Positions 6,534-42,088 of a stretch of DNA of 64,000 bases are shown here, in pieces (position 1 is the first letter of the stretch; the number at the start of each line of letters is the position of its first letter). This DNA comes from Terriglobia bacterium. GTDB lineage: Bacteria; Acidobacteriota; Terriglobia; JAJPHL01; JAPKYU01. The notes beneath the pieces are model-generated. The model was not told the DNA's origin. It worked only from the letters and a program-made list of their open reading frames with translations, and did not search any database. The stretch covers positions 928,001 to 992,000 of the forward strand of contig CBDCVK010000010.1 of NCBI GenBank assembly GCA_965223005.1, given 5' to 3'. The translations under genes were made by a program, and so were the position numbers.

Positions 6534-6715
6534 GGTTGTTCTCCTCCTCGGAAGCGAACGACCAAGGCTACACGCAGCGGGGTCGCATGTCCACTTCGCC
6601 GAGAAAATGTTCTGCGGGATGGGCCGCATTTCGCTCGCATCTACTGCATACCCAAAAAGTTTCTTAAAGCCAGGACTGAGGTACTCGTTGCCGGGCGGCC
6701 TGATAGAATTTCCCT

Positions 6716-7162
6716 ATGAGCGGTTACACCGAAGAACACGCGCGCGCGGGCATCCGGACCAAGCTGCCGGCGCTGGAAACCTGGCCCAACCAGTACGGCG
6801 GCTACACGATCACCATCGAATACCCGGAGTACACCTCGATCTGCCCCAAGACCGGCCTGCCGGATTACGCCACGATCACCATCGAATACGCGCCCGCCGA
6901 GCGGTGCGTGGAGTTGAAATCGCTGAAGATGTACCTGCTGGCCTACCGGAATCTGGGCATCTTCTACGAGAACGCGGTGAACCGGATTCTGGCGGATCTG
7001 GTGGCAGCCTGCCGGCCGGTTTCGGCCACCGTCATCGGCGAATTCACGGCGCGGGGCGGCATGCGCAGCTCTGTCGTGGCCCGCTGGCCCAGACCGGAAG
7101 GTTTAAAGTCCAAGGTCCAAAACCCAAGGTTCCAGGCCCAAGAGTCAAAGCCGAAGCGGTGA
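6716..7162 (+). CDS. queF: NADPH-dependent 7-cyano-7-deazaguanine (preQ0) reductase, unimodular type
   Basis: EYTSICPKTGLPDYA (catalytic Cys/Asp), VELKSLKMYL QueF motif, ARGGM. Confidence 0.95.
   Translation: MSGYTEEHARAGIRTKLPALETWPNQYGGYTITIEYPEYTSICPKTGLPDYATITIEYAPAERCVELKSLKMYLLAYRNLGIFYENAVNRILADLVAACRPVSATVIGEFTARGGMRSSVVARWPRPEGLKSKVQNPRFQAQESKPKR
7098..7153 (+). repeat. Degenerate heptanucleotide tandem array inside the queF 3' end
   Basis: aaggttt aaagtcc aaggtcc aaaaccc aaggttc caggccc aagagtc aaagccg. Confidence 0.55.
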
Positions 7163-10100
7163 CACTGGAGAAGCGGGCTTAGGAGACGGGCGCAGCGGGA
7201 CGGGAATCACTCAGGGTCGCGTGTCGAGGGTCGCCTCGGCGAGGATTCTGCCGACCACGCCGTTCGAAACCTTGCGCAGAATGAAGCGATAGACGTGCCC
7301 GGGCTCGATGAAATCGGCCTGCTGTTCGCCAAAGACGAATCCCGCGAAGAGCACCTCTTCGCCGCCATCTTCGGTGACGAAAACCTGCGCGGCGCTCGTG
7401 TTGGTGGTTGACCAGGTCACCAGGCCCTCGGGAGTCACGCTAATCTCCCCCGTAGACAAATCGCGGACGGGCAGGAAAGTTTGGTTGGCCGAAAGCGAGC
7501 CGACGAACACTATTACCTGAGCGTCATCGCCGTCCTCAAACAGGTTCGCAGCCACCTGCACATTAAACTGCAGCACGCCGACGAAGCCCGGAGCTAGTCC
7601 GGCAAATTGGATGGCAGCGTCTTTTTCCTGGATCGCGACGCTGGCGATGGTGCTAATCAGTGCATCCGCGGGAGAAGCTTCGCCAGTGACTGCCACCGGC
7701 AGGTCCGAGATGGTTCGCAGAACGAAACGATACAGACGCCCTGCCTGGTAGAACCCCGTTTCTTCCCCCTCCGTGCCATCCTCAAACACGGATTCCTGCC
7801 CGCCACCTACGGAAATGTGGACGCGCGCGGCCGTCACGTCGGTGGTGGACCAAGTCACCGTGCCCTCGGAGTCCACCGAAATGTCCCCGGAGGCTCCGTT
7901 GGACACCGTTACAAATGTATCCAGGGAGGCGCTGCCGAGCAGATCGCCCTGCAGGCCTTCGATGAACATCCACAGCGTGAAGTTGTAGTGGTGGCCGGGC
8001 GTGATGAAGTCTGCCTGCTTGGTGCCGGAGAGGCCCGTGGCGAATGACTCGGGCGGCGCGCCGTCCACCGAGACCAGGACGCGGGCGTCCGGGACACCAG
8101 CGGCGGACCAGGTAACCAGGCCCTCCGGGGTCACCTCAATCTGCCCGGAACCTCCGTCCGTGGCTTGCCCGCGCGTGTCCAGCACCGAGATGGCGACGAT
8201 GTCGCCCACGCCGCCGCCGTCGAACGGCCTGAGGATGAAGCGGTAGATGTGCTCGGGCGTGATGAAGTCGGCTGTTTCCGTACCCTCGGCGCCCTCGGCG
8301 AAGAACACTTCCTCGCCCCCATCGGTTGTAGCGAACACCTGGGCGCTTTCGCTGAAGGAAATGGACCAGGTCACCGCTCCGTCGGCGCTTACCCGGAGCT
8401 CGCCTCGGTCGCGGGTATCCAGGATGGCAGTAGCTAACGCGTCGCCCGGCAAGCCCAATACTTGTACGCCAGTGCCATAGAAGACGATTATCCCGCCGGG
8501 CACAAGCGGATGCTCGTCGTCCACGGGGGTGAAATCCGGGTGGAAGGCGAGCAGCCGGCCTATTCCATTTCCGGAAACAGTGAACAAGCCGGTGGTCAGT
8601 TGGTTGAGGCCGACGGGCATGGCGTTGGACAGGATCACTTCTCCTGACTCGGTGCGCTTGCGGATGACCACGCTGGCGTTTCTGCCCTCCGTCTCCCAAG
8701 GGACCTGGAAGTTGATCTGGGTTTGGGAGACAAAGAACAACGGGGCGGGCACGCTGTTGACCAGCACACTAGTGCCTGCCAATTCGCGCGGGAGGGGAAT
8801 CTGCTCAGCTACGGCCGTCTGTGGGGCAAGGTCGCGCCCGAACAGGGCGGCGATGTTGCCGGGCGTCACCTCCAGGCGGGGCCCGCCGAAGTTGATGCGG
8901 GAAATGTCCGGAAGCAAGCTGCTGATTTCCACTAGAAGGTCGGTAGGCTCACCGTTCTCGGGTGTTTCGCCTTCCTCACCTTCCTCGTCTCCCTCGGGCC
9001 CACCGAGCCCTATGGGTTGGAAGTAGACGACCTGACCGCCGGGCGAGCCGCCAACATAAGCGCGATAGTTGGTCGCGTTAGGCACTTCATCGAAGGTCAC
9101 GATCAGCTTGCTGTTCTCCGGCACCGTCACCATGACCTCTTCGGAGGGTATGCTCTCGAAAAGGAGGTCGCTGTTTTCCGCGGTCACCTTGATGTAGTAG
9201 TCGCCCGCGCCAAGGAACCCGTCGGGCTCGACCTCGACGGTGACGCCGGTGGGGCGGCCCAGGCCGTTGCCGGAAAAGCCCGCTGCGCTCAAGACAGAGC
9301 CCTGGTCGAACAGCGGCACTCCCGGCTCGAATTTCACGACGCGTCGGTTAATGCTGTCCGCTACCAGCACGCCCGACTCGGTGGCCGCCAGCGCGACGGG
9401 CAAAGCCAGCACGCCGGCGGTAACCTGATTGGGAAGATCCTCCGGGTCTAAAACACTGAAGAAATCCTTTTGTCCAAGCACCAAATCGGCCGGCGTGCCG
9501 TCGCTGGTGGGAATCTGGTTGAAGACCAGGACCCGGTTGTTGCCCGTGTCGGCAATGAACAGCCTGGTCCCATCGGTTAATGCGTAGCGCGGGAAATTCA
9601 GCGAGGCCGGGCCGGTGCCGGCCGTGTCGGTGGTGAAGTCCGGCTGCCCTACCACCACGTCGGCTGGTGCGTTGTTGCTGGTGGGAATTTGATTGTAGAT
9701 CAGCACGCGGTTGTGTCCCAGGTCGGTGACGATCAGGCGCACTCCGTCGGAGAATACCGCGGTGGGGTCGCGCAGACTGGTGTTGTTGGCCGGCTGATCT
9801 TCAGCGGAGTTGAAGTCGGCTTGCCCCAGCACTACGTCGGCTGGGACCCCACTCAAAGTGGGGACAGAGTTATAGATCAGCACGCGGTGGTTAAACGTAT
9901 CCGCCACGAACATTTGCTGCCCGTCCAGGAACACGCCGTTGGGCCCGCGCATGCTGGTCTCATCGGTATTGGCGGCTGCGCTTTCGAAATCGCTCTGGCC
10001 GACGACCACATCGGCGACGGCCCCGTTGGCCGTGGGGATGTTGTTGAACAACAGCACACGGTTGTTTCCCCAGTCAGCGACGGCTAGGTGCTGCCCGTCG

Positions 10101-10242
10101 CTGCTGATCCCCACCGGCCGGTTCAGGGAACTCTGGGAAAGCCCCGGGTCGGTCTGGCCGAAGTCCGGCTGTCCGATGACAACGCTGGCCGAAGCTCCCA
10201 GCGTCAGTTGTGAAAGGTTGTCGAAGACCAGGATTCGATTGT

Positions 10243-10808
10243 TGGTGGGCGCGGTAAACGGTAGGCTGCCATCGCACACAATCAGTCGGTCGCCGGCTAC
10301 CGCCAGGCCAGTGACCGAGCCGGCCGAATCGGCGGCAGTGCCGGGAGTGCTCGAGCTGAAATTCCTCTGGCCGATGACGGCGACGGCAGCTTGACCGGTA
10401 ACGTAGCGGCTGCTGTCGGTGGTCTGGTGGGCGCGGTAAACGGTAGGCTGCCATCGCACACAATCAGTCGGTCGCCGGCTACCGCCAGGCCAGTGACCGA
10501 GCCGGCACTGAAAAAGTCCCTGGGCGACCTCTTACGAACAAAATATAAATGAGTATAATTGTTCTCATTATGCGAGGACACGATCTGCACCAAGACGCGA
10601 TGTTCAGCTACCTGAGCCCCGAGCAACGGGTGCCCCAGGATCATCCGTTGCGGCCAGTGACCGACCGCACTGCAACGGCTTTCGCCGCGGTTCGAGCGGA
10701 TGTATGCCGAATCGGCGGCAGTGCCGGGAGTGCTCGAGCTGAAATTCCTCTGGCCGATGACGGCGACGGCAGCTTGACCGGTAACGTAGCGGCTGCTGTC
10801 GGTGGTCT
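10243..10808 (+). repeat. Direct duplication arranged A-B-A-[IS]-B
   Basis: A = 10243-10324 and 10425-10506; B = 10323-10425 and 10706-10808; copies identical by eye. Confidence 0.95.
10505..10715 (+). mobile_element. IS5-family left-end fragment with truncated transposase N-terminus
   Basis: Terminal GCACTGAAAAAG; ATG at 10570 gives MRGHDLHQDAMFSYLSPEQRVPQDHPLRP, then after a frameshift ALQRLSPRFERMYAES, typical of IS5-group transposase N-termini. Confidence 0.85.
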
Positions 10809-11173
10809 CTTGCGCCAGCACGGTCGGGGCCGGCAGAGCCGGCAAAGGCAAGGAGGCCAAGCTGAGAGCCGACAAGCCGACTACTAGGCCAACCAGGGCA
10901 AGTACGCGGGACACTAGACTGACCGTGCTCCTGGAACGAGTTGCAAAAACTACCAAGCATTACTATCTTAACGCGAACCTCTACGATCGGGGCCGGCCCG
11001 CCGCGGGTTGCGCCGCCTCTGGGAAAGGCAAAAGACAAGGCCCCAAAGGGCCAATAGCGAGGTTCACTACGAACCGAACGGCTCAAAGAAAATTCCCACA
11101 GGATAAAACGATGCCCTAGAGCGGCCGTCCCGAAAGGCCTCCATGGCAGCATGATAGAATTTCCCATCCACAT

Positions 11174-14100
11174 ATGACGGTTGTCCTACGCTGGGTCACG
11201 TGCTCTGTTCTGGTCCTGTTCCACGTCTTGGCTGGGGGCCCGGCGGCTTTCACTGCAAACGGTAGCGACGCTGCGGGAGAGCGAGGGTATCGTTGTGGCA
11301 CCAGCGACTGGGGCGTGCTGAACTCCCTGGGCCGCGAAGCGCTTCGAAAACTGCAACTGCGGCGCCAGGGGCACTTTCAGACCCTCGCTCGGCAGCAGAC
11401 GGCTTCCGCCGATGTAGGCGACATCGCAGTCCTCGACGACGATGGCACATTGCTGGTGCAGGCGAATTCGTTTGACCTGGCGAACCGCAGCATGCGGTTC
11501 ACCCCTGCCGGTGCCGGCTTCCTGGTCGCCGCTGGGGACGCAGCGCTGGATACGGCGGCAGCCGCAGCCGGCACGGTGCTCACGCTGGCCGACGATGATA
11601 CTCGCGAGATCCCCCTGGGCTTTCCCTTCACCTTCTACGGAAACACTTATGCGTCGGTCTTCGTCAACTCGGACGGCAACCTGACCTTTACCGGAGGTGA
11701 CGTGGCGACCACGCCGCGCGACCTGAGCCGTTTCCTGACGGGAGTCCCGCGTATCGCGCCATTCTTTGATGACCTGAATCCGGCCGAGGGCGGCCAAGTG
11801 ACCTATAGCGCCGAAGCGGGCCGGTTCGTGGTGAGCTGGACCGATGTCCCGGAGTGTTGCCTGCCGGCGATCACACCGAAGTCCACGTTCCAAGTGTCGC
11901 TGTTCCCGGACGGCGGTGTGGAGTTTGCTTATGGGACTGTGAGCGCCAACGATGCGGTGGTGGGCATCTCACCGGGAGCCTTCACGGGCGCCGCCGAGAT
12001 CGTGGACCTTTCCGCCACCGACGGCACCGAGACGATTGAGCTGCCAATTGCCGAAGTGTTTTCGTCCCGGACCCTGCTCAGCGAGGTGGCGGTGGCCCAC
12101 CGCTTCTATACCACCCACGAAGACGCTTACGACTTCCTGGTCATGTGGACTAACTTCCCCTCGGACCTCGGCCAGAACGTGTTTGCTTTTGCCCTGAACA
12201 TTGTCAACGGCACGTCCGGCATTGGCCGGCCCAATTTTGACTTTGCCGAAGCCCTGGGCAGCGAAGGACGCCTCTCCACCCTGGTCATGATGGGTGACCT
12301 GGACAAGTATCCGGCCGATCCAACGCAGGTGATTCAGAGTGTACCGCCGAACAACACTCTGAGCGTGCTGGGGCAGGAGGCGGGGCATCGCTGGCTGGTC
12401 CACTTCCGCTACCCTTTCCTCACGGACCCGGGCAGCACCATCCTGTTGGGTCACGACTTGGCGCACTGGAGCTTCTTCTTTAATTCAGAAGCGTCGGTGG
12501 TGGAAGGTAACGAAATCCGGGATAATGGCGACGGTACCTTCACGACCGCCGATGCTGTCCGCCGCTACGGCTCCTTTGACCAGTATGCGATGGGACTGCT
12601 TGCTGCAGGGGAAGTCCCGCCAAGCTTCGTGGTGCCGGATCCGGACCGGCCCGCTTTTGGCCATCGTCCCGAGATTGGGGTCACCTTCGGTGGCACGCGG
12701 CTGGATGTGACCGTAGAAAAGCTGATCGAGGCCAACGGCAGCCGCCTGCCGACCGCTGTTGTGGATCAGAAGAATTTTAGTTTTGCTTTCATCCTGATCA
12801 ACGCCCGAGGCAGCACGGCCACCGCTGAGCAGATCGCCAGGCTGGAGACCCATCGGCAACAGTGGGAACAGTTCTGGGCCGAAGCCACCGGCGGGCGGTC
12901 GCAGGCCAACACGCGGCTGGTGCAAGCACTTTCCTTCGGCGGGCTGCCAGCCGCTGTCGCACCCGGGGCGCAGGCCACCCTAAGCCTGCGGACCGGCAGT
13001 CCGGCGGATGAGTTGCGGACCTTCACCCTAGCCAGCTTGGCTCCCGGCGTGGCTTCCGTGCCTGCGTCGGTCACTATTCCCGCAGGCATGCGCGAAGTCG
13101 AGTTCCAGGCAATCGCTGCCGCGGCCGGGGTGGCGCGTATCACTGCCGCGGCGCCGGGCTTCGAAACCGCTGAGGGCGCCCTCTCGGTGGCCGAGCCAGC
13201 CGCGGTGGAGTTGGCCGCCATTTCCGGTGGCGGGCAGGTGGGACCCCCGAGGGCAATCCTGGCACAACCGCTGGTGGTTGAGGCGCGCGAGTCCAACGCG
13301 CTGCCGGTGGCCGGAGCCGAGGTGGGTTTCTCGGCCACCGGCGGCGCCATCGTTACACCCGCCGTGGTCACCACCGATGTCGGCGGGCGGGTGCAGACCA
13401 GTGTGACTTTAGGACCCTCGGTGGGAACCCTGACGGTCACCGCTTCCTTGGTTGGCCTCGACGAAGTGCGGGCTACGTTCACCGCGACCGCTCTCACTCA
13501 GCCGCAGGTGCCGGAAGGCTCGGCGGTGAACGGCGCCAGCTTTGCCCAAACACCCACTCCGGTCAGCCCGGGCTCCGTCATCTCTATTTTCGGCACCAGC
13601 CTTGCGCCGGAAACGCAGCAAGCCACCTCACTGCCCCTGCCCACAACGCTGGGAAACGTCACCGTGCGGATCAATGAGATTTCGGCGCCCCTGTTTTTTG
13701 TCTCGCCGGGACAGGTGAACGCACAGGTACCCTTTGCGATTTCCGGAAGTACCGCCACCGTTACGGTGGACAATGGCACCTTGCCCAGCGCCTCGATTAC
13801 GCTTGGCATCGCTCCGGCTGCACCGGGCATTTTTACACTGTCGCAAGACGGCACCGGGCCAGGCGCAGTGCTGCATCCGGACGGCTCGCTGGTCAGCGTA
13901 ACTTCACCTGCCAAGGTGGACGAAGTGGTGGCGATCTTTTGTAGTGGCCTGGGGAGTGTGACGCCAGCGGTGGAAAGCGGGCAGCCGGCCCCACTCTTCC
14001 CAGCAGCCACTACCTTAACCACGCCGCAGATCACCATTGGAGGCGAGCTGGCTGAAGTCGTGTTTTCCGGGTTGGCGCCGGGCTTTGCCGGGCTCTACCA

Positions 14101-14200
14101 AGTGAACGCCCGCGTTCCCGCTGGCCTCGAGGCCGGCGCGCAGCCGATGGTGATTACCAGCGGCCTCAGCAGCAACTCCGTGACCCTGGCGGTCGAATGA
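11174..14200 (+). CDS. Exported NIDO-like + zincin-like (QEAGH) + Ig-like + TIGR03437-like protein
   Basis: Signal peptide; IPLGFPFTFYG..VNSDGNLTF..IAPFFDDL NIDO motif; LGQEAGHRW..AHWSFF; C-terminal PLFFVSPGQVNAQVP..GLAPGFAGLYQVN. Confidence 0.88.
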   Translation: MTVVLRWVTCSVLVLFHVLAGGPAAFTANGSDAAGERGYRCGTSDWGVLNSLGREALRKLQLRRQGHFQTLARQQTASADVGDIAVLDDDGTLLVQANSFDLANRSMRFTPAGAGFLVAAGDAALDTAAAAAGTVLTLADDDTREIPLGFPFTFYGNTYASVFVNSDGNLTFTGGDVATTPRDLSRFLTGVPRIAPFFDDLNPAEGGQVTYSAEAGRFVVSWTDVPECCLPAITPKSTFQVSLFPDGGVEFAYGTVSANDAVVGISPGAFTGAAEIVDLSATDGTETIELPIAEVFSSRTLLSEVAVAHRFYTTHEDAYDFLVMWTNFPSDLGQNVFAFALNIVNGTSGIGRPNFDFAEALGSEGRLSTLVMMGDLDKYPADPTQVIQSVPPNNTLSVLGQEAGHRWLVHFRYPFLTDPGSTILLGHDLAHWSFFFNSEASVVEGNEIRDNGDGTFTTADAVRRYGSFDQYAMGLLAAGEVPPSFVVPDPDRPAFGHRPEIGVTFGGTRLDVTVEKLIEANGSRLPTAVVDQKNFSFAFILINARGSTATAEQIARLETHRQQWEQFWAEATGGRSQANTRLVQALSFGGLPAAVAPGAQATLSLRTGSPADELRTFTLASLAPGVASVPASVTIPAGMREVEFQAIAAAAGVARITAAAPGFETAEGALSVAEPAAVELAAISGGGQVGPPRAILAQPLVVEARESNALPVAGAEVGFSATGGAIVTPAVVTTDVGGRVQTSVTLGPSVGTLTVTASLVGLDEVRATFTATALTQPQVPEGSAVNGASFAQTPTPVSPGSVISIFGTSLAPETQQATSLPLPTTLGNVTVRINEISAPLFFVSPGQVNAQVPFAISGSTATVTVDNGTLPSASITLGIAPAAPGIFTLSQDGTGPGAVLHPDGSLVSVTSPAKVDEVVAIFCSGLGSVTPAVESGQPAPLFPAATTLTTPQITIGGELAEVVFSGLAPGFAGLYQVNARVPAGLEAGAQPMVITSGLSSNSVTLAVE

Positions 14201-14931
14201 ACCCGACGAAGCTCAGATTCCTGGCGATTACTGCGCATCCCGACGATGAAACCGGCTCGTTCGGCGGCACGCTGGCTCTCTATGCCGCTCGCGGGGTTGC
14301 TATAGAGGTGGTGTGCGCCACTCGCGGCGAAGCCGGGCGCAACCGAGGCTCGGCCCGTACGCGCGAAGAACTTGCCGAGATGCGAATCCGGGAGTTCCAT
14401 CAGGCCTGCGAACTGCTGGGCGTTTCCTGGCACGAGATCTGGGACTACCCCGATGGGGGGCTGAACCGCGTCGGCTTCCTCGATCTGGGTCTGCGGCTGT
14501 GCCAGGTGATCCGCCAGCGAAGGCCTGCTGTGGTGTTAACTCTGGGGCCGGAAGGCGGTTTCACCGGCCATCGGGACCACGCGGCGATTTCCCACTTTGC
14601 CATCTTCGCCTTCCATGCAGCCGGACGCCAGGAGCTTTTCCCGGAAACAGGCCGGCCGCACCAGCCTCAGCGTCTTTACTACGCCACTGGGCCCAAATCC
14701 CTCGCCGGCTATCCCCAGGTCTGTTTTTCTCCGGTGACTGTCGAGATCGATATTTCGGAAACGTTCCAGCGCAAGCTCGAAGCCTTCCAGTGCCACCACA
14801 CCCAGGCACCGCTGTTTCCCCGCTTTCGTGCAGTTGTTCAGCAGGTTGGTCCCCGGGAATGGTTCCACTTGGCGGCCGCGAATGCTGCTTTGCCGCCAGG
14901 GATGGACCGCGACTTGTCCGTCGGACTCTAG
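14197..14931 (+). CDS. PIG-L/LmbE family deacetylase
   Basis: AHPDDE, ATRGEAG, GHRDH, CHHTQ motifs; ATGA overlap with the upstream gene. Confidence 0.92.
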   Translation: MNPTKLRFLAITAHPDDETGSFGGTLALYAARGVAIEVVCATRGEAGRNRGSARTREELAEMRIREFHQACELLGVSWHEIWDYPDGGLNRVGFLDLGLRLCQVIRQRRPAVVLTLGPEGGFTGHRDHAAISHFAIFAFHAAGRQELFPETGRPHQPQRLYYATGPKSLAGYPQVCFSPVTVEIDISETFQRKLEAFQCHHTQAPLFPRFRAVVQQVGPREWFHLAAANAALPPGMDRDLSVGL

Positions 14932-14955
14932 CCAGACTCTAGCCGGAACGGGGGT

Positions 14956-16176
14956 GTGACTCCCCTGGCGCTTCCTGCTATCCTGCTACCTCTTCCTATG
15001 GCCTTCGACCCTATGGCGTTCGACAAAGTTCGGCTTGACGGACCAGAAAGGGCAAGCGGCTTGCCTGGAGTGCTCTTGTTGTTCTTGCTTCTGTTGCCCG
15101 TCGAATGGGCGGCTGGCGCGCCGGCCGCGCGGGCTGAGGACGAGGTGTATGTCTATGACTTGTTCGTCGAGGGAGCCAATTGCGGAACCGTGCTGGCTCG
15201 CTTGAAGCAACTTCCCCTGCGGCCCACGCTCATCCTGAGTGTCGAGCAAGGAAAGCGATTCTTGCTGGACGATCCCGCGGGCGATCAGCTGCTGGCCTGC
15301 GTCCTGGACCATCTGCGCGGCTCCGACCGCACGGTGAAGGCGATGCTGCTGCAGGACCCCTCGTTTACCGAGCGCACCGGGGAGGCCGTGAGGCGCGCCG
15401 CGCGGCTCGGGCAGTTCGTGAAGCGGCATCCCGGCCAGCTGGCAGGCGCGCACATAGACGTGGAGCCCTACACCACCGAAGACTGGAAATGCGGTGATGC
15501 CGAGGAGCGCGGGCGCCTGGTGCAGGAGCTGCTTCAGTTGTTGAACCTGGTTCGCCAGCAACTCCGCGGGCTGCCGCTGGGCGCGGCCGTCCCTTGGTGG
15601 TTCCCGCGGATCAGCGACGAGGTTCCCGAAGCCGCTCCCGAAGCCCTATTCAGCGTAGCGGACGAGATTTATCTAATGACCTACGGGGACAAAGGGGGAC
15701 CGGTGGTGGGCGGTACGGCTAACCGAGTGCTGCGGCGCGTGGACGCCCCGGAATTTTTCTCCGGCACCGGGCGCATGTACATCGCCCTGGCCAGTTACGA
15801 GTTTCCCTCGGCGGCCGACCTGGAGAGAACAGTGGGAACTGTACACCAGCGCCTGGACAGGCACGCGAATTTCGCCGGCACCGCCGTTTTCCACGCCGCC
15901 TCCGTCTTCAAGGCCCCTTTGCTGCGGCTGGTATCCGGCCAGGTGGTGGACGAAGCCGGAGAGGGCGTGGCTGGCGTCAACATCGATGCCGGCGAAATCC
16001 GAAAACGCTCCAACAAGTGCGGGAAGTTCGTGCTGCGTGGCGTGCCGGAGGGGCAGGCGGAGCTGATCCTGGAAAAGGAGGGCTTCCGCACTCGGAAGCT
16101 TCCCATCCGCCTTGCCGCTCCCGGCCGCATCCGAGACCTGGGAAACATCGTCCTGGAAAAGAGCCCCGGCTTTTAG
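14956..16176 (+). CDS. Exported hypothetical protein: glycoside-hydrolase-like barrel plus carboxypeptidase-regulatory-like domain
   Basis: Hydrophobic N-segment; GAHIDVEPY and ADEIYLMTYG motifs; C-terminal VSGQVVDEAGEGVAGV..GKFVLRGVPEG; start uncertain. Confidence 0.6.
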   Translation: MTPLALPAILLPLPMAFDPMAFDKVRLDGPERASGLPGVLLLFLLLLPVEWAAGAPAARAEDEVYVYDLFVEGANCGTVLARLKQLPLRPTLILSVEQGKRFLLDDPAGDQLLACVLDHLRGSDRTVKAMLLQDPSFTERTGEAVRRAARLGQFVKRHPGQLAGAHIDVEPYTTEDWKCGDAEERGRLVQELLQLLNLVRQQLRGLPLGAAVPWWFPRISDEVPEAAPEALFSVADEIYLMTYGDKGGPVVGGTANRVLRRVDAPEFFSGTGRMYIALASYEFPSAADLERTVGTVHQRLDRHANFAGTAVFHAASVFKAPLLRLVSGQVVDEAGEGVAGVNIDAGEIRKRSNKCGKFVLRGVPEGQAELILEKEGFRTRKLPIRLAAPGRIRDLGNIVLEKSPGF

Positions 16177-16277
16177 TTGATATTTGACCTGCTCTTATGC
16201 TGCTAGCAGCTTTGCGTCGGGCCGCAGGTTCCTTGAGAACCCGAGTGGCTCGGCTTGGCCGGGGCCTAACTGTCTCC

Positions 16278-17306
16278 GTGTCAGATAAACTCGCCCTTCC
16301 GGAAAACGACTCCACCTACAGGAAGCGCCTTCACAGGGAAATCGAGCGCTACAAGGCAGACGAAAACGTTCACGACCTGCCAGAAATCTTTCACTTCTGG
16401 TCGAACAAGTATATCCGACCGAAAATAGAGGAAGTTATTGGTGTGTCTGGCTTTGAAGAATTTTATGCGAAATACATCTCCCAGTATGCATCCGATCATC
16501 CGGGTGAACCCATCGAGATCGCTAGCCTCGGAGCAGGTAATGCTGACATGGAAGTCGGAATAGCGCAGGCCCTGCGAAACCGTGGCCTTATGAACTTCCG
16601 CATCCGCTGTCTGGACATTAATCCAAGCATGCTGGGCCGCGGACGGGAACTTGCATTGCAATCGCACCTTGCGGATCGATTTGAATTTCTCGAGGTCGAC
16701 CTTGCCCGCTGGCGTGCAGAGTGCCCTATGGCAGTGGTGATTGCACACCACAGTCTGCACCACATCGTAACACTGGAAGAAGTTTTCCAAAACATCCAGG
16801 AGGCAATCGGCAACAGCGGCTATTTCCTTACATGCGACATGATCGGCCGCAACGGCCACATGCGCTGGCCAGAGGCCCTAACCGTCATCCACGAGATCTG
16901 GCGGACCATGCCGGACCGATATAAATACAACCATCAGTTGCGGCGTTTTGAGACGATGTTAGACAATTGGGACTGTTCCACGGAAGGGTTTGAAGGTATT
17001 CGATCTCAAGATATTCTTCCTCTGTTGGTAAAGAAGTTTCACTTTGAGGCGTTTGTAGCGTATGGAAACTTGCCAGACATTTTCGTGGACCGCGGGTTTG
17101 GCCACAATTTCGATGTTGCAAATCCGGAAGATACTGACTTTATTGATCGTATTGGAGCATTGAACGACCGGCAGATTAGCGATGGCCTAATCAAGCCGAC
17201 ACAGATGGTTGCGGTCATGCGCGCTTGCCCAACGATGGCTGCCAGATGCTATAAGCATTGGCTCCCACAATTCTGTATCCGTCCGGTGTCGGCAATAGCA
17301 TCCTGA
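16278..17306 (+). CDS. Class I SAM-dependent methyltransferase
   Basis: IASLGAGNA motif I, CLDINP, HSLHH; more AT-rich than flanks; GTG at 16278 preferred over 16197. Confidence 0.85.
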   Translation: MSDKLALPENDSTYRKRLHREIERYKADENVHDLPEIFHFWSNKYIRPKIEEVIGVSGFEEFYAKYISQYASDHPGEPIEIASLGAGNADMEVGIAQALRNRGLMNFRIRCLDINPSMLGRGRELALQSHLADRFEFLEVDLARWRAECPMAVVIAHHSLHHIVTLEEVFQNIQEAIGNSGYFLTCDMIGRNGHMRWPEALTVIHEIWRTMPDRYKYNHQLRRFETMLDNWDCSTEGFEGIRSQDILPLLVKKFHFEAFVAYGNLPDIFVDRGFGHNFDVANPEDTDFIDRIGALNDRQISDGLIKPTQMVAVMRACPTMAARCYKHWLPQFCIRPVSAIAS

Positions 17307-17354
17307 TTGCATGCTCAGAGCGGTACTAGCGTCAAACGATGATCGCCCCGCGGT

Positions 17355-19571
17355 TCACTGCACAGCCAGCGTGACGGTGTCGCTAGTCTTTCCACCGATC
17401 TCGATTTCTAGTGGTACCTCATCACCGGCTGGCGCCGCCGCCGGTACGCGGGCGTTCACTTGGTAGAGACCCACAAAGCCCGGCGCCATGCCCGAGAAAA
17501 GCACTTCTGCCGAGGCGCCCCCGATCATAACGACTGGCGTCACTACTGTTAAATTGAGCGGAGGTGAGCTAGCTCCAGTCTGGCCCGTAGCCAGCGGCGG
17601 ATCCGTCACGCCCAGGCCAGTGGCAAAAATCTGAACCACTGAGCCCGCTACTGCCGGGTTTTCCGCTGAGTTAGGCGAAAAGTCTTCGTTTAAGATGGCA
17701 CCCGGCCCGCTCCCGCCTGGTACAGCGGTGAAGATGCCCGGAGCCGCAGGCGCAATTTGCACCATCACTTCGGGACCATGAACTCCGTCGGAGGCCACGA
17801 CTATCGGGACGGTAGTGCCAGTTACCTCGAACGGCATTTGGAAGTTGATCTGCAAAGGCGAAACAAAGAACAACGGCGCGGGCGTGTCATTGACCAGAAC
17901 CTCGGTGCCGGCCAGCGTGGTGGGGAGTGGCAACCCGGCCGCTACGTCCGTGGCCGCTGCAAGGTTCATCCCGAACAGCGATGCAATGGAACCAGGGCTG
18001 ACAAGCGCCTCGTCCGAGAAACTGGCACCGTTGACAATCCCGCCTTCGCCAATCACGGGTCCGGTCGGTACGGCCTCGGCAACCGTGAGGCGAACAGGGA
18101 CAAGTGCGAGGTTAGCGGGATCGAGCACAGGTGTAATTATGACGGTACCCAGGTAATCACCCGGTACCAGGCCCGACGCGTCCACACTCACCGTTACAGT
18201 GCCCGGAGTAAAGCCTGATTCCGGGGAAACTGACAGCCACCCTAGTCCGCCTGGCGTTGTGGTCCTCGCCGTCCAGCTCGCAATTCCGCTGACTGTATTG
18301 TCTATGGTCAACATCTCCAGCATCGGATCTGCCGCCCCGGCTGTAGCTTCAAGGTCGAGAGACGATGGCCCAACGGAAAGCTGCGGCTTTGGCTGGAAAC
18401 GCCGGACGAGGTGATTCAGGTGGTCCGCGAGCAGGAAAGCCCCTTCTCCTTCGATCGCGATGCCGGCCGGGCGATTTAGTTTTGCCGCGAACGGATTCCC
18501 CAAATCCTCAGAGAACCCAGGATCATCAGCTATGCCAGCCACTGTGGAAATGAATCCGTCCGGGTTCACACGGCGAATGATGTGGGATAGGTGTTGCGAA
18601 ATGTATAGATTGCCCGAGCCGTCGACGGCCACGTCCACCGGCAGTCTCACCGACGCGATAACGGCGAGTGTGCCATTGCCAACGTTATCCACCTCCCCAT
18701 TGCCGGCGATCGTAGTGATGGTCCCATCAGGAATGACCATCCGCACACGGTTGTTAAAGGTATCAGCGATGAAGAGGTTCCCCGACGAGTCCACAGCAAT
18801 GCCTGAGCCTTGTGTTGCCTCACGCTCCCCATCGGTAAAGGTAAATCCCCAAAGCCACAACTTCGCTGAGGTTGCCTGACCCCCATCGCCGGAAAAACCT
18901 CTCTGCCCAGTACCGGCTACCGTCGTGATGAGACCATCCGGGGTTACCTTGCGGATTTTGGCGTGACTCTGGTCGGCAATGTACAGGTTTCCGTCTGCGT
19001 CTACCGCCAAACCAGAGACGAACCCTATGGAAGCTTGGTCCGCCGGTCCACCGTCTCCGGTGGAACCAACGATCGCATTGCCGGCCACAGTGCTGATGAT
19101 TCCCTCCGGCGTAACCTTGCGTATTCTGTAATTCTCGCTGTCAGCGATGTAGAGATTCCCAGAGGCGTCAACGGCAACGCCACTCGGCGATTGCAACAGA
19201 GCGGTAATGGCCGGGCCATCTTCGAGCGGATTAAATCGCCCGCCCGGGGTGCCCGTCCCTGCCACTGTCGTAATCATCCCGTCAGGGCTCACCTTCCGGA
19301 TGCGGTGATTGGCTGTGTCGGCGATATATACGTTGCCGGATGGGTCGACGGCTACGTCGGACGGGAGATATAGGGAAGCGGCAGTCGCAGGCCCCTCATC
19401 GCCGGAAAAAGCTGCGGTGCCATTGCCGGCGACGGTGGAAATAAAATTCTGGGCAGACGCGAGAAATGGCGCCAGGAAGAAAATCAACATGACTGATCTG
19501 TGTCGCGACAATCCAACACCCCCGCCTCCAAAGATGGGGCTCAGGCTACGTTCTGACAATTGGTCTGTCAA
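17355..19571 (-). CDS. Exported NHL-repeat + BACON + TIGR03437-like protein
   Basis: Repeated ISTVAGNG..VAVDxSGNLYIAD..RIRKV; WLSVSPESG; C-terminal PLFFVSPLQINFQMP..GMAPGFVGLYQVN; true start probably further downstream. Confidence 0.9.
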   Translation of the reverse strand: MTDQLSERSLSPIFGGGGVGLSRHRSVMLIFFLAPFLASAQNFISTVAGNGTAAFSGDEGPATAASLYLPSDVAVDPSGNVYIADTANHRIRKVSPDGMITTVAGTGTPGGRFNPLEDGPAITALLQSPSGVAVDASGNLYIADSENYRIRKVTPEGIISTVAGNAIVGSTGDGGPADQASIGFVSGLAVDADGNLYIADQSHAKIRKVTPDGLITTVAGTGQRGFSGDGGQATSAKLWLWGFTFTDGEREATQGSGIAVDSSGNLFIADTFNNRVRMVIPDGTITTIAGNGEVDNVGNGTLAVIASVRLPVDVAVDGSGNLYISQHLSHIIRRVNPDGFISTVAGIADDPGFSEDLGNPFAAKLNRPAGIAIEGEGAFLLADHLNHLVRRFQPKPQLSVGPSSLDLEATAGAADPMLEMLTIDNTVSGIASWTARTTTPGGLGWLSVSPESGFTPGTVTVSVDASGLVPGDYLGTVIITPVLDPANLALVPVRLTVAEAVPTGPVIGEGGIVNGASFSDEALVSPGSIASLFGMNLAAATDVAAGLPLPTTLAGTEVLVNDTPAPLFFVSPLQINFQMPFEVTGTTVPIVVASDGVHGPEVMVQIAPAAPGIFTAVPGGSGPGAILNEDFSPNSAENPAVAGSVVQIFATGLGVTDPPLATGQTGASSPPLNLTVVTPVVMIGGASAEVLFSGMAPGFVGLYQVNARVPAAAPAGDEVPLEIEIGGKTSDTVTLAVQ

Positions 19572-19715: not shown

Positions 19716-24029
<4,314 letters not shown>

Positions 24030-24058: not shown

Positions 24059-24628
24059 CTACGAGATTACCTCGGGCGCGGGACTCTTCTTCATGAAATC
24101 CTCCGGCTCGACGCCCAACGCGTCGGCCAGCCGGGCGTAGTAGTTGAAGAAGCCGATGATGTGGACGGCGGTGAGTATCTCCTCATCCGTCCAGCCAGCC
24201 TCGCGCAGGCGGGCGACATTCTGCCCGCTCAGCTTCTGCGGCGCCTGCGTGACCTCGACGACGAAATCGAGCAGGGCGCGCGTCTTAACATCGAGCGTCG
24301 CCCGACGATAGTCGCGCTTGACCTGGGCGGCCAGCTCCTCATCGCCGGTGACTGCACGGAGATCCTCTCCGTGAGCTTCCGTTCAATAGAAGCAGTTGAG
24401 CGCACGCGAGGTCACCGTGGCGATCATCTCCCGCGTTGCGCGGGGAAGCGGCCCCGGCCCCAGCATGAGCGTCTGGTAGAGGCGAAGGGAGGCCTCCATT
24501 GCGCGCGGGTTCAGACTGGAGATGCGCACGATGTTGAACACCCGCCCGGCGCGTTTGACGGCAACATCGTACTGCTGCTTCAGTGAGCCGGTGGCTTCCT
24601 CTGGCGCAATGGTTCGTATGTAGGCCAT
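24059..24628 (-). CDS. AhpD/peroxidase-related (CMD-fold) selenoprotein, CxxU with Sec at codon 82, 189 aa
   Basis: ..REMIATVTSRALNCFY-TGA(24385-24383)-TEAHGEDLR..ALLDFVVEVT..LREAGWTDEEI..FNYYARLADALGV in one frame; hairpin CACGGAGA-GGA-TCTCCGTG starts 10 nt after the UGA. Confidence 0.88.
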
Positions 24629-24772
24629 AAGCATTCCCTGTCCAAGTGCCCCGTAACCCCCCGTGACCCATAGCCGGGGTGAAGAAGAAGAGAGAAGCTG
24701 GCGCGTCCGTGGGGATCCCTGGCCCACGCCGATGCCCTGATGGGAAACGGAGCTATCGCTTACTTCTTGACC

Positions 24773-25648
24773 TTATTTCTTGACCAGCACGTCGATCAAC
24801 CGCACGGCATAGTCACCCGGATAGCGCTCTCGATCGGTGCCCGGGTCTTCGTAGTCCCAGCTGCCGCCTCGGATGATTATCTTGCGAGCGACCGGGTCAG
24901 CCTCTCCGATCCGAAAGTAGGCTGTGTTCTCATACAATCCTCCCATTATGGGGCCCGGCCTGTAGTATCCATTGCTCATCCCATAGACAATGCTCTGCAA
25001 TTGTTCGACAAATGCTTCAGCTTCCTCGACGGATTCGAACTTTTGCTTCTCGGAAAGTGCTTTCTGGGGCCAGGCATTATGCTGTCCCTTGAGACCCTCA
25101 ATCATCTGTCGCTTGATTAATTGCCCGCGCGTATTTTTGAGGTCTTCCCCATCAGCCCACCACTCGAGGATGTTGTAGCCTGGAGTGGAGCAAGCCGAGC
25201 CCACCACCGTAACGGACACGATTGGCTTCTCTTCTACAATCGTGATGCTTCCAACATCTCCGAAGATCTCTACCCCTTTTTGACTATACTCTGACCAATG
25301 ATCTATTGTGACGTTCCGGTAATGGAAGGGGGATCTATATAAATGATGTTCTGTCTCGAACACTTCTACTTCCTGCGGCGGACCAAGCTTGCTATTGCCC
25401 TGAGGGGCCCGGTAAAGCGGCATGCTGCCTTCTTTAGGGAGAATCGTGTAGGAAGGAAGCTTTTCATCCGGTGAAGGCCACCGGAGGCTGTACCGGAACG
25501 GCTTCTTGGTCGTCGGCGGGTTTTGGGCGTTTCCTTGTTTCTCCGCCGCAACCCAAACAACTGGAACCATAATCAGCAGGGTTGAAACCATCAATAAAGC
25601 TGGTCTCAACCGTTTTCCCAATAGGAATTTAGAAATTTCCAGACGCAT
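24773..25648 (-). CDS. Exported hypothetical protein
   Basis: 291-aa ORF with signal-peptide-like N-terminus and AGGAGG RBS; AT-richer than flanks; no recognised motif. Confidence 0.7.
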   Translation of the reverse strand: MRLEISKFLLGKRLRPALLMVSTLLIMVPVVWVAAEKQGNAQNPPTTKKPFRYSLRWPSPDEKLPSYTILPKEGSMPLYRAPQGNSKLGPPQEVEVFETEHHLYRSPFHYRNVTIDHWSEYSQKGVEIFGDVGSITIVEEKPIVSVTVVGSACSTPGYNILEWWADGEDLKNTRGQLIKRQMIEGLKGQHNAWPQKALSEKQKFESVEEAEAFVEQLQSIVYGMSNGYYRPGPIMGGLYENTAYFRIGEADPVARKIIIRGGSWDYEDPGTDRERYPGDYAVRLIDVLVKK

Positions 25649-26278: not shown

Positions 26279-27337
26279 TTAGCGTGCTTCGCCAAGTGGA
26301 ATCCGGATCTTAGCCAGATAGATGCTGGTCTTGGCTTCGTGGGAGGAATAGTAGCTCATCCACAGCAGATTCTTGTGCCACACCAGTCCCGGGTAGCTGG
26401 TGTCTCCACCGCTCGGCAACGTGAGCACCGGCTCATAACTGTTGCGAGTCATTCTCGCCAAGACGGTGTTTGTTGTGCCGTCCGGGTGATACCTCCGACC
26501 CGCGGCCCAAAGACTGCCGTCGGGAAGCCGTATGAAGTTGGGGCCTCCGATGCGGAGCTTCATCTTGTGGAATGTCCACTGCTTATACGGCGGCTGACTG
26601 GTTCCGATCCACGAGGGGCGAACAAGAGCAATCAGCTCTCCGTTAGGCAGAAACCGGAGAGTCGTTTCACTGATCCGATCGACCTCAAGCTCCGTGATCC
26701 ACTGCCAGCGAAGACCATCGGTACTGGAATACAAGAATCCTCGCCTTGGTTTGCTCCCTTCGTTGAGTCTCGAGACGCTGTAGGCGACACCTTTATGCCA
26801 CGTCACCCGCCACAACCAGTGGTCTTCCGCCAGCACCCGCTGAGGACGTGTCCATTCCCGTCCGTCTCGCGAAAAAGCCACCCGTGGAGCACGTGTCTGA
26901 TACACAGTTCTGTCGTAAACGGTGCCGCCGGCAACCGTCATGAGCCGGCCGTCCGGCATGACGGAGAGTTTTGGGTCTCTCAGGTCAATCCCTTCTTCCA
27001 CGAGAAGCGCTGCGGATTCCCACTTTTCCCCATCTCTCGACGTTAGGACCCGCAACTTTCCAATTGACCTGCCGTGCGACTCTGCCTCGCGGAATATACA
27101 GTACCAGCGGTCCTGAAATCGAATCAGGTCGGTGAAGGCACTGTGCGGTGCACGGTCCCAAATTTTTCGGACGGAGATGATCTCAGGCTGATCTGTTGCC
27201 TCGGTCGCCCGAGTGCGATGACTGCCCCACAACACTACTCCTGCAAGCAGGATACCCGTCAATGCTACGAACCGAGCACGTTGGGTGCTGCTAGGAAATA
27301 TTTTCACTTCGCTTCGTCCTTTCAGCGCGTGACGCAA
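26279..27337 (-). CDS. Exported BNR/Asp-box (sialidase-like) beta-propeller protein
   Basis: HSAFTDL, SRDGEKW, SRDGREW, STDGLRW Asp-boxes, GGDTSYPG; start uncertain. Confidence 0.85.
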   Translation of the reverse strand: MRHALKGRSEVKIFPSSTQRARFVALTGILLAGVVLWGSHRTRATEATDQPEIISVRKIWDRAPHSAFTDLIRFQDRWYCIFREAESHGRSIGKLRVLTSRDGEKWESAALLVEEGIDLRDPKLSVMPDGRLMTVAGGTVYDRTVYQTRAPRVAFSRDGREWTRPQRVLAEDHWLWRVTWHKGVAYSVSRLNEGSKPRRGFLYSSTDGLRWQWITELEVDRISETTLRFLPNGELIALVRPSWIGTSQPPYKQWTFHKMKLRIGGPNFIRLPDGSLWAAGRRYHPDGTTNTVLARMTRNSYEPVLTLPSGGDTSYPGLVWHKNLLWMSYYSSHEAKTSIYLAKIRIPLGEAR

Positions 27338-29624: not shown

Positions 29625-30289
29625 TCAACTCGCCTTCAAGCCGAACAACTCGCGAGCGTTGTCTTCAAAGACTTGCCGGCGCAACCGCTCGGGCAGCTTT
29701 GGAAATGTCGTATGGGGATCGTCCCAGTCGTAGTGCGGAAAGTCTGAGCAATAGATCAAGGTCTCTTCGGCGTAAATGGCGTCGAACATCTCCAGCAACT
29801 GCTCCTCCCTAGGCGGCTGGTGCAGGGGCTGAGATCCGACCTTCACGTGCCGACGAATGTATTCGCTCGGCAGCTTCTTCAGCCAAGGCGTCTGATCCCG
29901 CAGCATCTTCCAATCGGCATCCATGTGCCAGAGCAATCCGATCAGCCAGGACTGCTGCACCTCGATGAACGCAACCTGCAGCTTCGGATACTTCGGCGGC
30001 GCAGAAACTCGTAAGTTGAGCACGGATCGCGAGGGTCGAAGACCTTGGAATCGTCCCCGTCGGATAGGTCTCTGCGCACGGACCGGAAAGGGACGTTAAA
30101 GAAACCAGCAGTGGGAGTGATCAGACCTTGATCGAGAAAATGTTCCTGATAGGGCTTCGATAAGTACGGCAGGAGGTCTTCAGGCCTCGATATGCTTTGA
30201 TGAATGTCGCAGTCGATGATAGCAACGTCCCTTTTGGGGTCGCCGGTCCACCCGGGCGCCACTGCAGGCGTCGCGCCTACCATTTCCAC
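29625..30289 (-). pseudogene. Amidohydrolase_2-family gene with a large internal deletion and frameshift
   Basis: N-terminal IIDCDIH in one frame is joined near 29994 to KYPKLQVAFIE..LPSEYIRR..CSDFPHYD in another frame; the central part of the TIM barrel is absent. Confidence 0.85.
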
Positions 30290-30629
30290 TGGGTGTTCCT
30301 CCTCAACTTTATCTTTCGGGGAGGAATTGTAGCACACACGCCGGCCCCTTACCTGCCAAGCACCGGTTCTGATGGAGAGTGGCTAAGGACTATTTCACGC
30401 GCTCAGCACGCTAAGGACTGCATCACGGCATCTTGCCGCCCATACCTGTTAACCTCGGCCCCCTGATAATTGGCATCCTCTCACAAAGAGGCTTATCCTC
30501 TCCAGAAACAGGGCGAGAGTTCCCCATCGACTCCAGTGGGCGGAGTATAGCAGGGCTTCACTACTCTTGGCGGGATGGCTCGACGGTCGCCGCATTGGTA
30601 GAGTTCAGCCGGCATCAGCGCTGCCGCCG

Positions 30630-41224: not shown

Positions 41225-41848
41225 CTAGGTCGGCTGCCACAGGCGGGAGGGCTTCTCCGGGATGGTCTCCAATTCCTGTAGCAGCGCCCGAATTTCCTCG
41301 GTGAGCCGTACGATATTGGTGAAGCGGCGTGCCAGCGACGGGGGGAGTTCAGGTGACTTCAAGGCCATTTCCGCGCTGCCCAAGATGCCGGTCAGCGGGT
41401 TGTTGAGTTCGTGTCGGATGGAAAGGGCCAGGGCGCGCAACTGGTCCTGGGACTCCAGGTGCAGCGCCTGCGATTGCGTCTTCCACAAACGCGCGGACAA
41501 CAGGGCCTGTTCCAACACCGGTTCCAAAAACACCGACAAGGTCGGACCGGTGGGCACATATCCGGCGGCCCCCAGCGACAGGGCCCGGGCGGCCTGGAGC
41601 TCGGCTCCCGGTTCCACCAGCACAACGACCGCAGCTTCGGGATGGGCGCGCAACACCTCTTCCAGGGTTTCCAAACCGTAGCCATCCGATGGCCGCAGGG
41701 CCAGAATCAAGGCTGCATAGCGCCCCGAGCGCAGCCGCCAGAGCACTTCCTCGGCTCGGTGGGCCTGCTGCACATGCCAGCGTTCCCTGAGGGCATCCTC
41801 AATCGTCATGCCCTGGCGAAAATCGCTCATCGCCAGCACGGGGCGCAT
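41225..41848 (-). CDS. Atypical receiver domain + HisKA (DHp) protein lacking the HATPase domain
   Basis: Receiver-like fold with ALILAL at the phospho-Asp position; SIRHELNNPL H-box; ORF ends after the DHp helices; ATG at 41848 has a GGGGGAG RBS. Confidence 0.75.
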   Translation of the reverse strand: MRPVLAMSDFRQGMTIEDALRERWHVQQAHRAEEVLWRLRSGRYAALILALRPSDGYGLETLEEVLRAHPEAAVVVLVEPGAELQAARALSLGAAGYVPTGPTLSVFLEPVLEQALLSARLWKTQSQALHLESQDQLRALALSIRHELNNPLTGILGSAEMALKSPELPPSLARRFTNIVRLTEEIRALLQELETIPEKPSRLWQPT

Positions 41849-42088
41849 GGCTCCCCCTTCCAAACGCTTCATAGCGGCCCTTTCCAACATTGTTCGCCGA
41901 GGAAGCTGCCGCAAGAACCTTGGCGTACCTTTTCATGCAGGCACATCGACACAACCGCTCCAGATGGCCCCGAGCTTTGCTCGGATTAGCTGTCAGGAGA
42001 GCAGGCGAAGGGCCAAACTAGGTGTTAGGAGCAGAAGGAGTTAGGAGGCCAGTGACTCCCAAACCGGAAACGGAATCCCGTTTCGGAA

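Follow-up and report, generated by a model that had tools for sequence, protein, structure and literature searches.

A predicted AhpD-like CxxU selenoprotein gene in a Terriglobia bacterium, with a SECIS hairpin that may occupy two registers among its relatives

Gene structure and genomic setting

On the minus strand of the 64-kb stretch of Terriglobia DNA analysed here (hereafter the window), a predicted AhpD-like (TIGR01926) selenoprotein gene of 189 codons occupies positions 24059..24628, running from an ATG at 24628 to a TAG at 24059-24061 with only one internal stop, a TGA at codon 82 (24383..24385). The original prediction held that an open reading frame ends at ALNCFY-TGA and that the same frame stays open for 107 more codons, and translation of the minus strand bears this out. 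Here, the TGA context reads ALNCFY-TGA-TEAHGEDLR and gives the motif C79-F-Y-U82-x3-H86. Both halves show the codon-position GC pattern of a gene, with GC3 values of 0.80 and 0.82, and a Shine-Dalgarno-like AGGGA (24635..24639, minus strand), as read from the sequence, lies 6 nt before the ATG. A promoter scan gave no sigma-70-like promoter between the gene and its upstream neighbour, nor was a terminator found. Standard gene calling had been expected to split or drop such a gene; in fact, the ORF lister (table 11) ends the N-terminal half at the TGA and lists no ORF of at least 60 residues for the C-terminal half, and the gene is thus split or dropped by annotation.

Just 29 bp past the selenoprotein stop, a gene for an Lhr-family helicase (1437 residues; 19716-24029, minus strand) begins, and the two genes may share one transcript, though this pairing does not appear in the 45 largest clusters of neighbouring genes. 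Moreover, these clusters revealed no conserved neighbourhood among the best 80 related loci: apart from ORFs of the gene itself, the most widely shared ones are generic (ABC ATPase at 15 loci and histidine kinase at 11), and so no partner protein is named. Upstream of the selenoprotein gene, in a stretch of lower GC (about 57%), are two ORFs of 291 and 352 residues (24773-25648 and 26279-27337, both minus strand) that have hydrophobic stretches at the N-terminus and match nothing in Pfam or NCBIfam. Elsewhere in the window, four large proteins with a Solibacter C-terminal domain (TIGR03437) are clustered in 18 kb (2037-19571) and suggest that the host belongs to Acidobacteriota. An amidohydrolase (Amidohydro_2) gene (29625-30337, minus strand), with a Rieske gene and a TPP enzyme downstream of it, is in two out-of-frame pieces with its middle apparently missing, being either a pseudogene or an assembly deletion. 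A short ORF at 41225-41914 (minus strand) carries partial receiver and HisKA domains and is perhaps a fragment of a hybrid kinase.

Family assignment, fold and active site

With U scored as C, the read-through protein gave 140.4 bits on TIGR01926, above the cut-off of 81.8, and the separate halves (44.8 and 76.5 bits) each fall below it. A structural counterpart, PDB ID 2pfx, is matched across residues 17-175 with an E-value of 4e-27. The solved homologues 2pfx, 3c1l, 2prr, and 6k40 align across the TGA, and in the three alignments compared a cysteine stands at this point, so that the TGA does sit where the second Cys of CxxC..H had been expected. An AlphaFold2 model built from seven sequences (pLDDT 68.8 and pTM 0.67) likewise gave, with Foldseek, TM-scores of 0.72-0.76 to 2pfx and 6k40 (2pfx at E 4.4e-9), and the modelled protein has the all-helical AhpD/CMD fold.

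The five-residue relay described for PA0269, a weak peroxidase, and Mycobacterium tuberculosis AhpD in the consulted part of PMC3141380 (E, C, Y/H, C, and H at -12, 0, +2, +3, and +7) is found in the window protein as Glu67 (24428..24430; the Glu118 position in M. tuberculosis AhpD and Glu36 in PA0269), Cys79 (24392..24394), Tyr81 (24386..24388; His132 and Tyr50), the predicted selenocysteine 82 (24383..24385), which is the second CxxU position, and His86 (24371..24373; His137 and His55), all on the minus strand. Four of these residues (Glu67, Cys79, Tyr81, and His86) are invariant in 81/81 genes, these being the best 80 related loci and the window gene.

AhpD-like selenoproteins with a CxxU motif form a described class, as the original prediction had recognized and as PMC13188914 and PMC1088965, in the parts consulted, confirm. 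They were reported in 2005 from the Sargasso Sea, with 27 genes (PMC1088965), are abundant in the GOS data (299 plus 70, the label there being 'AhpD-like 1'; PMC2398784), are tabulated under TIGR01926 with MCB9421940.1 (PMC13188914), and make up a BSepDB family (PMC13326102), each in the portion of the source consulted. The window gene shares with this family (TIGR01926/COG2128) an above-cut-off HMM match, the CxxU motif, an in-frame UGA with a bSECIS, and widespread Cys homologues, and we observed no difference at the family level, where the comparison is one of family features and not of members' sequences. The gene is a new member of this known family, and since the family is long known, it is not itself a discovery.

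The hairpin downstream of the UGA

The core of the SECIS hairpin (24355..24373, minus strand) is a perfect 8-bp stem, CACGGAGA/TCTCCGTG, at +10..+17 and +21..+28 after the UGA, which encloses a GGA loop (24363-24365) whose first G is at +18; with the A-U pair open, the loop is alternatively AGGAU. These features agree with what had been predicted. The core encodes His86-Gly-Glu-Asp-Leu-Arg91, and the His86 codon doubles as the outer 5' end of the stem. A predicted extension (24346..24381, minus strand), seen in both the MFE and centroid folds, adds 3 bp past a bulge and a 3-bp basal helix, though its columns are not conserved among relatives. The fold has an energy of -19.4 kcal/mol (z = -3.96), and none of 200 shuffles was equally stable.

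According to the constraint model in section 5 of PMC13188914 (the part consulted), a bSECIS has a loop of 3-9 nt, a stem of 4-16 bp, a G in the first two loop positions, a spacing of 16-37 nt, and an MFE of -7.5 or lower. Our own script gave a loop of 3 (or 5) nt, a stem of 8 bp, GG, and a spacing of 17 (or 16) nt for the window hairpin, which thus falls within all four published constraints, the N1-G-G-N-N2 loop pattern included, and the earlier description of it as SECIS-like stands. The background is nonetheless considerable: a G-loop hairpin of at least 6 bp follows 137/1597 TGA trinucleotides in the window (at least 8 bp, 35/1597) and 2 of the 13 genuine TGA stops, and synonymous resampling with the window protein fixed produces such a hairpin 19% of the time (p about 0.19). 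By itself, the window hairpin is weak evidence, and it is the conservation across relatives that gives it significance.

Codon 82 among relatives

A scan of GTDB genomes, in which neither of the peptide patterns specified a stop, matched at least 579 stretches and confirmed at least 187, the best 80 of which were analysed. These loci include some near-copies, and because of kinship the counts below are not independent events. As labelled, they span about nine phylum-level lineages (Acidobacteriota, Gemmatimonadota, Chloroflexota, Planctomycetota, Latescibacterota, Poribacteria, Calditrichota, KSB1, and Acidimicrobiia), the closest named ones being Acidobacteriota. Two loci labelled Klebsiella and one labelled Singulisphaera (L053, L065, and L078 taken together) group tightly with Roseiflexaceae and may be mis-binned.

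Codon 82 is TGA at 79/80 of these loci and TGG at the other. A TGA lies one base from the Cys codons TGC and TGT, and a one-off nonsense mutation or sequencing error would be a simple account of a single gene; that the TGA is common to nearly all of the best loci refutes it, and the possibility is negligible. Close homologues that never have a TGA at this position had been named as part of the outcome that would point to a nonsense mutation, and here the opposite was decisively found. In 80/81 genes, 81 codons are open upstream of the TGA (the remaining gene is truncated at a contig end), and all 81 have 98-132 open codons downstream. Moreover, pS greatly exceeds pN in each half, which indicates purifying selection, and the ratios are alike between the two halves, for example 0.07/0.53 and 0.07/0.47 for L003/L004. 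At one locus (L079), a partial duplicate of residues 1-92 (7017-7292), located 3 kb upstream of the full gene, keeps the TGA and terminates just past the His codon region.

Of 58 hits in the protein database, 44 extend over the site, with 35 Cys, 5 Trp, 2 Gly, 1 Ser, and 1 Leu, and the remainder are 13 half-proteins broken at or near it and one unrelated fragment. Four of the halves end at CxY and nine are C-terminal halves, several of which begin with Met right after the break. Such annotated halves might suggest a split gene, in which the TGA is a true stop, the C-terminal half is made by reinitiation, and the halves assemble afterwards. Against this, an ATG, GTG, or TTG occurs within codons 83-86 in only 7/81 genes (in the window, ACG stands there), every gene keeps the same spacing and frame on either side of the TGA, and a protein divided there would lose its second redox residue and have Cys79 and His86 on different pieces. 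We consider a split gene highly improbable, although not to the extent of a one-off mutation.

A UGA read as Cys, Trp, or Ser rather than Sec is scarcely more probable. The candidate readers, which we judge very unlikely even jointly, are a selC* tRNA-Cys(UCA), an acidobacterial allo-tRNA, and a variant genetic code. In the part of PMC5389517 consulted, opal-reading tRNA-Cys and acidobacterial allo-tRNAs are put forward as possible suppressors, and Trp does occur in 5 of the 44 database homologues covering the site. Yet TGA is the stop codon in 13 of the 31 window genes with a family match, and Trp is encoded by TGG (148 codons), and thus a genome-wide reassignment is excluded; selC* is reported, in the same part of PMC5389517, from other phyla and always beside a full Sec system; and SelB requires just such a conserved hairpin, with a G in its loop and at the distance of a SECIS. 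Of 43 TGA sites in the window with open flanks and a hairpin, none but that of the gene described here was convincing by eye as a read-through site.

Among full-length database proteins, the two nearest to the window protein, at 66% identity, carry Cys at the site and nest in the clade of the window gene with a support of 99. Sec-to-Cys reversions are known in other selenoprotein families, and the placement of these two proteins fits such a reversion. A second clade of Terriglobia (L019, P0006, and P0008, support 100) has CxxW or CxxS and is under purifying selection; the sequences indicate that this small clade replaced Sec with Trp or Ser. Its TGG gene (L019:10001-10606) retains a hairpin relic, the stem being kept with one central mismatch and the loop changed. 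The only database Trp checked at the DNA level is P0005, which is L019 with its TGG, and the rest may be TGA codons translated under a different code. With Cys in the closest proteins and Trp or Ser in a nearby Terriglobia clade, Sec has been lost at times in this lineage.

Conservation of the hairpin and its two registers

A consensus-type SECIS hairpin is present in 78/81 genes, as compared with 10.4 expected from synonymous resampling; L017 and L043 fail, as does L019, the gene with TGG, whose fold is unexceptional (z = 0.17). As a control, a plasmid collection gave 347 matched records, every one below 60% identity; of eight genes fetched, four lacking the CxxCxxxH motif were dropped, and none of the four distant Cys-form genes has the hairpin. 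In addition, a test based on protein residues avoids choosing gene groups by stem. Among the TGA genes chosen solely for Glu88-Asp89, 33/36 use GAG GAT (background 0.57 x 0.47), and the three exceptions are Poribacteria genes that use the second register described below. In genes with the residues typical of that register, Arg91 is encoded by CGT or CGG in 42/42 cases and never by CGC, their commonest Arg codon (0.49). These codon choices indicate that the hairpin is conserved beyond what protein coding needs.

Among the 81 genes, 29 have the hairpin in register A, as in the window, 46 have it in register B, and 6 are below both thresholds. The register A stem spans +10..+28 with an A-GGA-U loop, AGGAU being found in all 29, while the register B stem spans +19..+36 with a CG(U/G)NNN loop, 7-8 nt further out. 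The Asp89-Leu90-Arg91 codons form the 3' arm in register A, whereas in register B the Asp89-Leu90 codons form the 5' arm and the loop G falls in the Arg91 codon; the two folds are mutually exclusive, and the position of the UGA is unchanged. In the protein, the consequence is GED for register A versus AHD...EV for register B. According to PMC13188914, in the part consulted, bSECIS elements often differ between genes.

In 34 register A sequences (five below threshold included), 90.8% of the cells pair and there are seven two-sided changes at two pairs, and in 47 register B sequences (44 distinct), 96.8% pair with seven such changes at three pairs, though both tallies are biased in favour of the structures, given that stems served to define the groups and that the genes share ancestry. 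None of 500 shuffles reached either two-sided count, and slid controls pair at 19-58%.

One Poribacteria gene (L028:3881-3922) has stems for both registers, and its sisters (L030, L033, and L038) have register B only, the GAG GAT codon choice being lost. Compared with shuffled sequences, neither its fold (z = -0.19) nor that of a register B example, L051 (z = 0.22), stands out. In a tree built without residues 82-95 (quick search), the A genes scatter about the base and three changes are required for register B. The B genes alone as a clade are rejected (p-AU 0.004), a constraint that split L028 from its own clade, and B plus L028 as a single clade is not (p-AU 0.64, again by a quick tree search); one origin of register B is possible on this topology. 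Taken with the double stems of L028, the tree results are compatible with a change from A to B via a double state. We consider it probable from these patterns that the SECIS jumped register without the UGA moving, with L028 as a natural intermediate, which would make this a traceable case of SECIS turnover in a coding region. As a guess, the register may need to match the host SelB when the gene moves between phyla. We found no description of two SECIS registers or of the Trp variant in the literature searched, the coverage of which excluded most subscription papers and supplements, and the two-register SECIS is the only part of this work that may be new.

Selenium use around the gene and its relatives

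Using tblastn (with E. coli SelA, SelB, and SelD as queries against the window and the loci), ARAGORN, and Rfam, we found no selA, selB, selD, or tRNA-Sec within the 64-kb window; at gathering thresholds Rfam had no match in the window, and ARAGORN found no tRNA there and six in the best 80 loci, none for Sec. In the 1.2 Mb of flanks of these loci, selA, selB, and tRNA-Sec were likewise not found, and one SelB hit by tblastn was rejected as elongation factor 4 (LepA). Independent signs of selenium use were seen in the flanks of 3/80 loci. At L066 (60-950), a SelD gene with its 5' end cut at the locus edge precedes the AhpD-like gene by about 6 kb, though SelD alone can serve other selenium traits too (PMC1794560, part consulted). 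At L029, a TlpA/ResA-like thioredoxin-fold gene (4821-5369, minus strand) about 5 kb from the AhpD-like gene has a WUGPC motif and a 7-bp hairpin, and judging by these features it is likely a second selenoprotein. At L002, a second AhpD-like paralogue (10834-11433, minus strand), convergent with the first, shares the position of the TGA codon and carries an A-type hairpin of its own, with a GUU loop. Sec-using Acidobacteria and selenoproteins in Acidobacteria have been reported (Table 2 of PMC1794560 and Table 2 of PMC12013277, each source consulted in part).

That the Sec machinery is not seen within the window and that sister lineages show changes from Sec to Cys, Trp, or Ser are points in favour of a relic, namely a gene descended from a selenoprotein in a host that lost the Sec machinery, and now silent and truncated. 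However, the window hairpin is fully intact at 8 bp, codons 83-91 show no amino-acid change relative to 7/7 of the closest loci, and the C-terminal half is constrained as much as the N-terminal half. A relic is thus unlikely, even if it is the least improbable of the alternatives. The reading that we prefer, with a probability of about 0.92 from the comparative sequence evidence, is that the UGA at codon 82 is recoded as selenocysteine in one intact 189-residue oxidoreductase with the AhpD fold.

Predicted mechanism and related enzymes

Given the comparative evidence and the well-established SelB/SECIS route, we infer that codon 82 is translated as Sec. SelB-GTP-Sec-tRNA(Sec) would dock on the apical GG loop of the in-frame hairpin, at 16-17 nt from the UGA, and selenocysteine would be inserted at codon 82; otherwise, termination would yield an 81-residue fragment. 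In the predicted active site, Glu67, Cys79, Tyr81, Sec82, and His86 would lie on a helix-turn-helix, and the enzyme would cycle between the selenol/thiol and a Cys79-Sec82 selenosulfide. The predicted substrates are hydroperoxides, oxidised peroxiredoxin, or another protein disulfide, and re-reduction would be by a dihydrolipoamide- or thioredoxin-type donor. By analogy with AhpD-family biochemistry, a redox cycle with such substrates and such a donor seems rather likely. Sec usually occupies the nucleophile position, and as a first guess by analogy we lean slightly towards Sec82 as the attacking residue.

Among the Cys-type enzymes, 2pfx, 3c1l, 2prr, 2oyo, and DR1765 (6k40) have the same fold and the E/C/Y/C/H relay at 29-34% identity; they carry the second Cys where the window gene has TGA, and the TEAHGEDLR stretch of the window protein is shaped by the SECIS. 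Loss of DR1765 in Deinococcus radiodurans leads to higher H2O2 sensitivity, and complementation needs the cysteines (PMC8945050, part consulted). The NF041238 family (AhpD_rel_CFYUT) shares the CFYUT motif and matches the window protein over profile positions 151-342 (E 1.3e-16). Membership was rejected at 60.8 bits against a cut-off of 175; about 150 N-terminal positions of this 357-position model are absent from the window protein. M. tuberculosis AhpD (TIGR00777), which reduces AhpC, has a helix-turn-helix relay with the same spacing (PMC3141380, part consulted), and 1lw1 is a weak fold match to the window model (E 0.11). Assignment to this type was rejected, there being no TIGR00777 match at E 0.001 and Tyr81 occupying the His132 position; no ahpC was found among the scanned neighbours.

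More distantly related is the N-terminal domain of Sestrin2 (E 2.5e-5), which has a Cys-x-Tyr-x-x3-His site and alkylhydroperoxidase activity, the first Cys alone being catalytic (PMC4674687, part consulted). From this same source, the idea that sestrins keep the second Cys was rejected, since Sestrin2 has the first Cys only (CxxL), and it resembles the CxxW/S/L variants and not the Sec form. Because Sestrin2 is catalytic with its first Cys alone, either Cys79 or Sec82 may be the attacking residue. The one-Cys activity also offers a reason for the purifying selection on the CxxW/S clade after Sec loss, and this clade is possibly a one-cysteine, sestrin-like enzyme.

Implications

An intact redox enzyme is routinely split or dropped by annotation, both here and in many uncultured lineages from soil, sediment, and groundwater, and among the full-length versions found in databases, the exceptions with Cys, Trp, Ser, or Leu are over-represented. 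Should the two registers be borne out, genes with A only, B only, or both, together with the Cys and Trp forms, would make a natural series of variants in which to study the evolution of a SECIS that lies within a coding region and the limits that SelB specificity sets on gene transfer, and this same set can probe which CxxU residue is catalytic.
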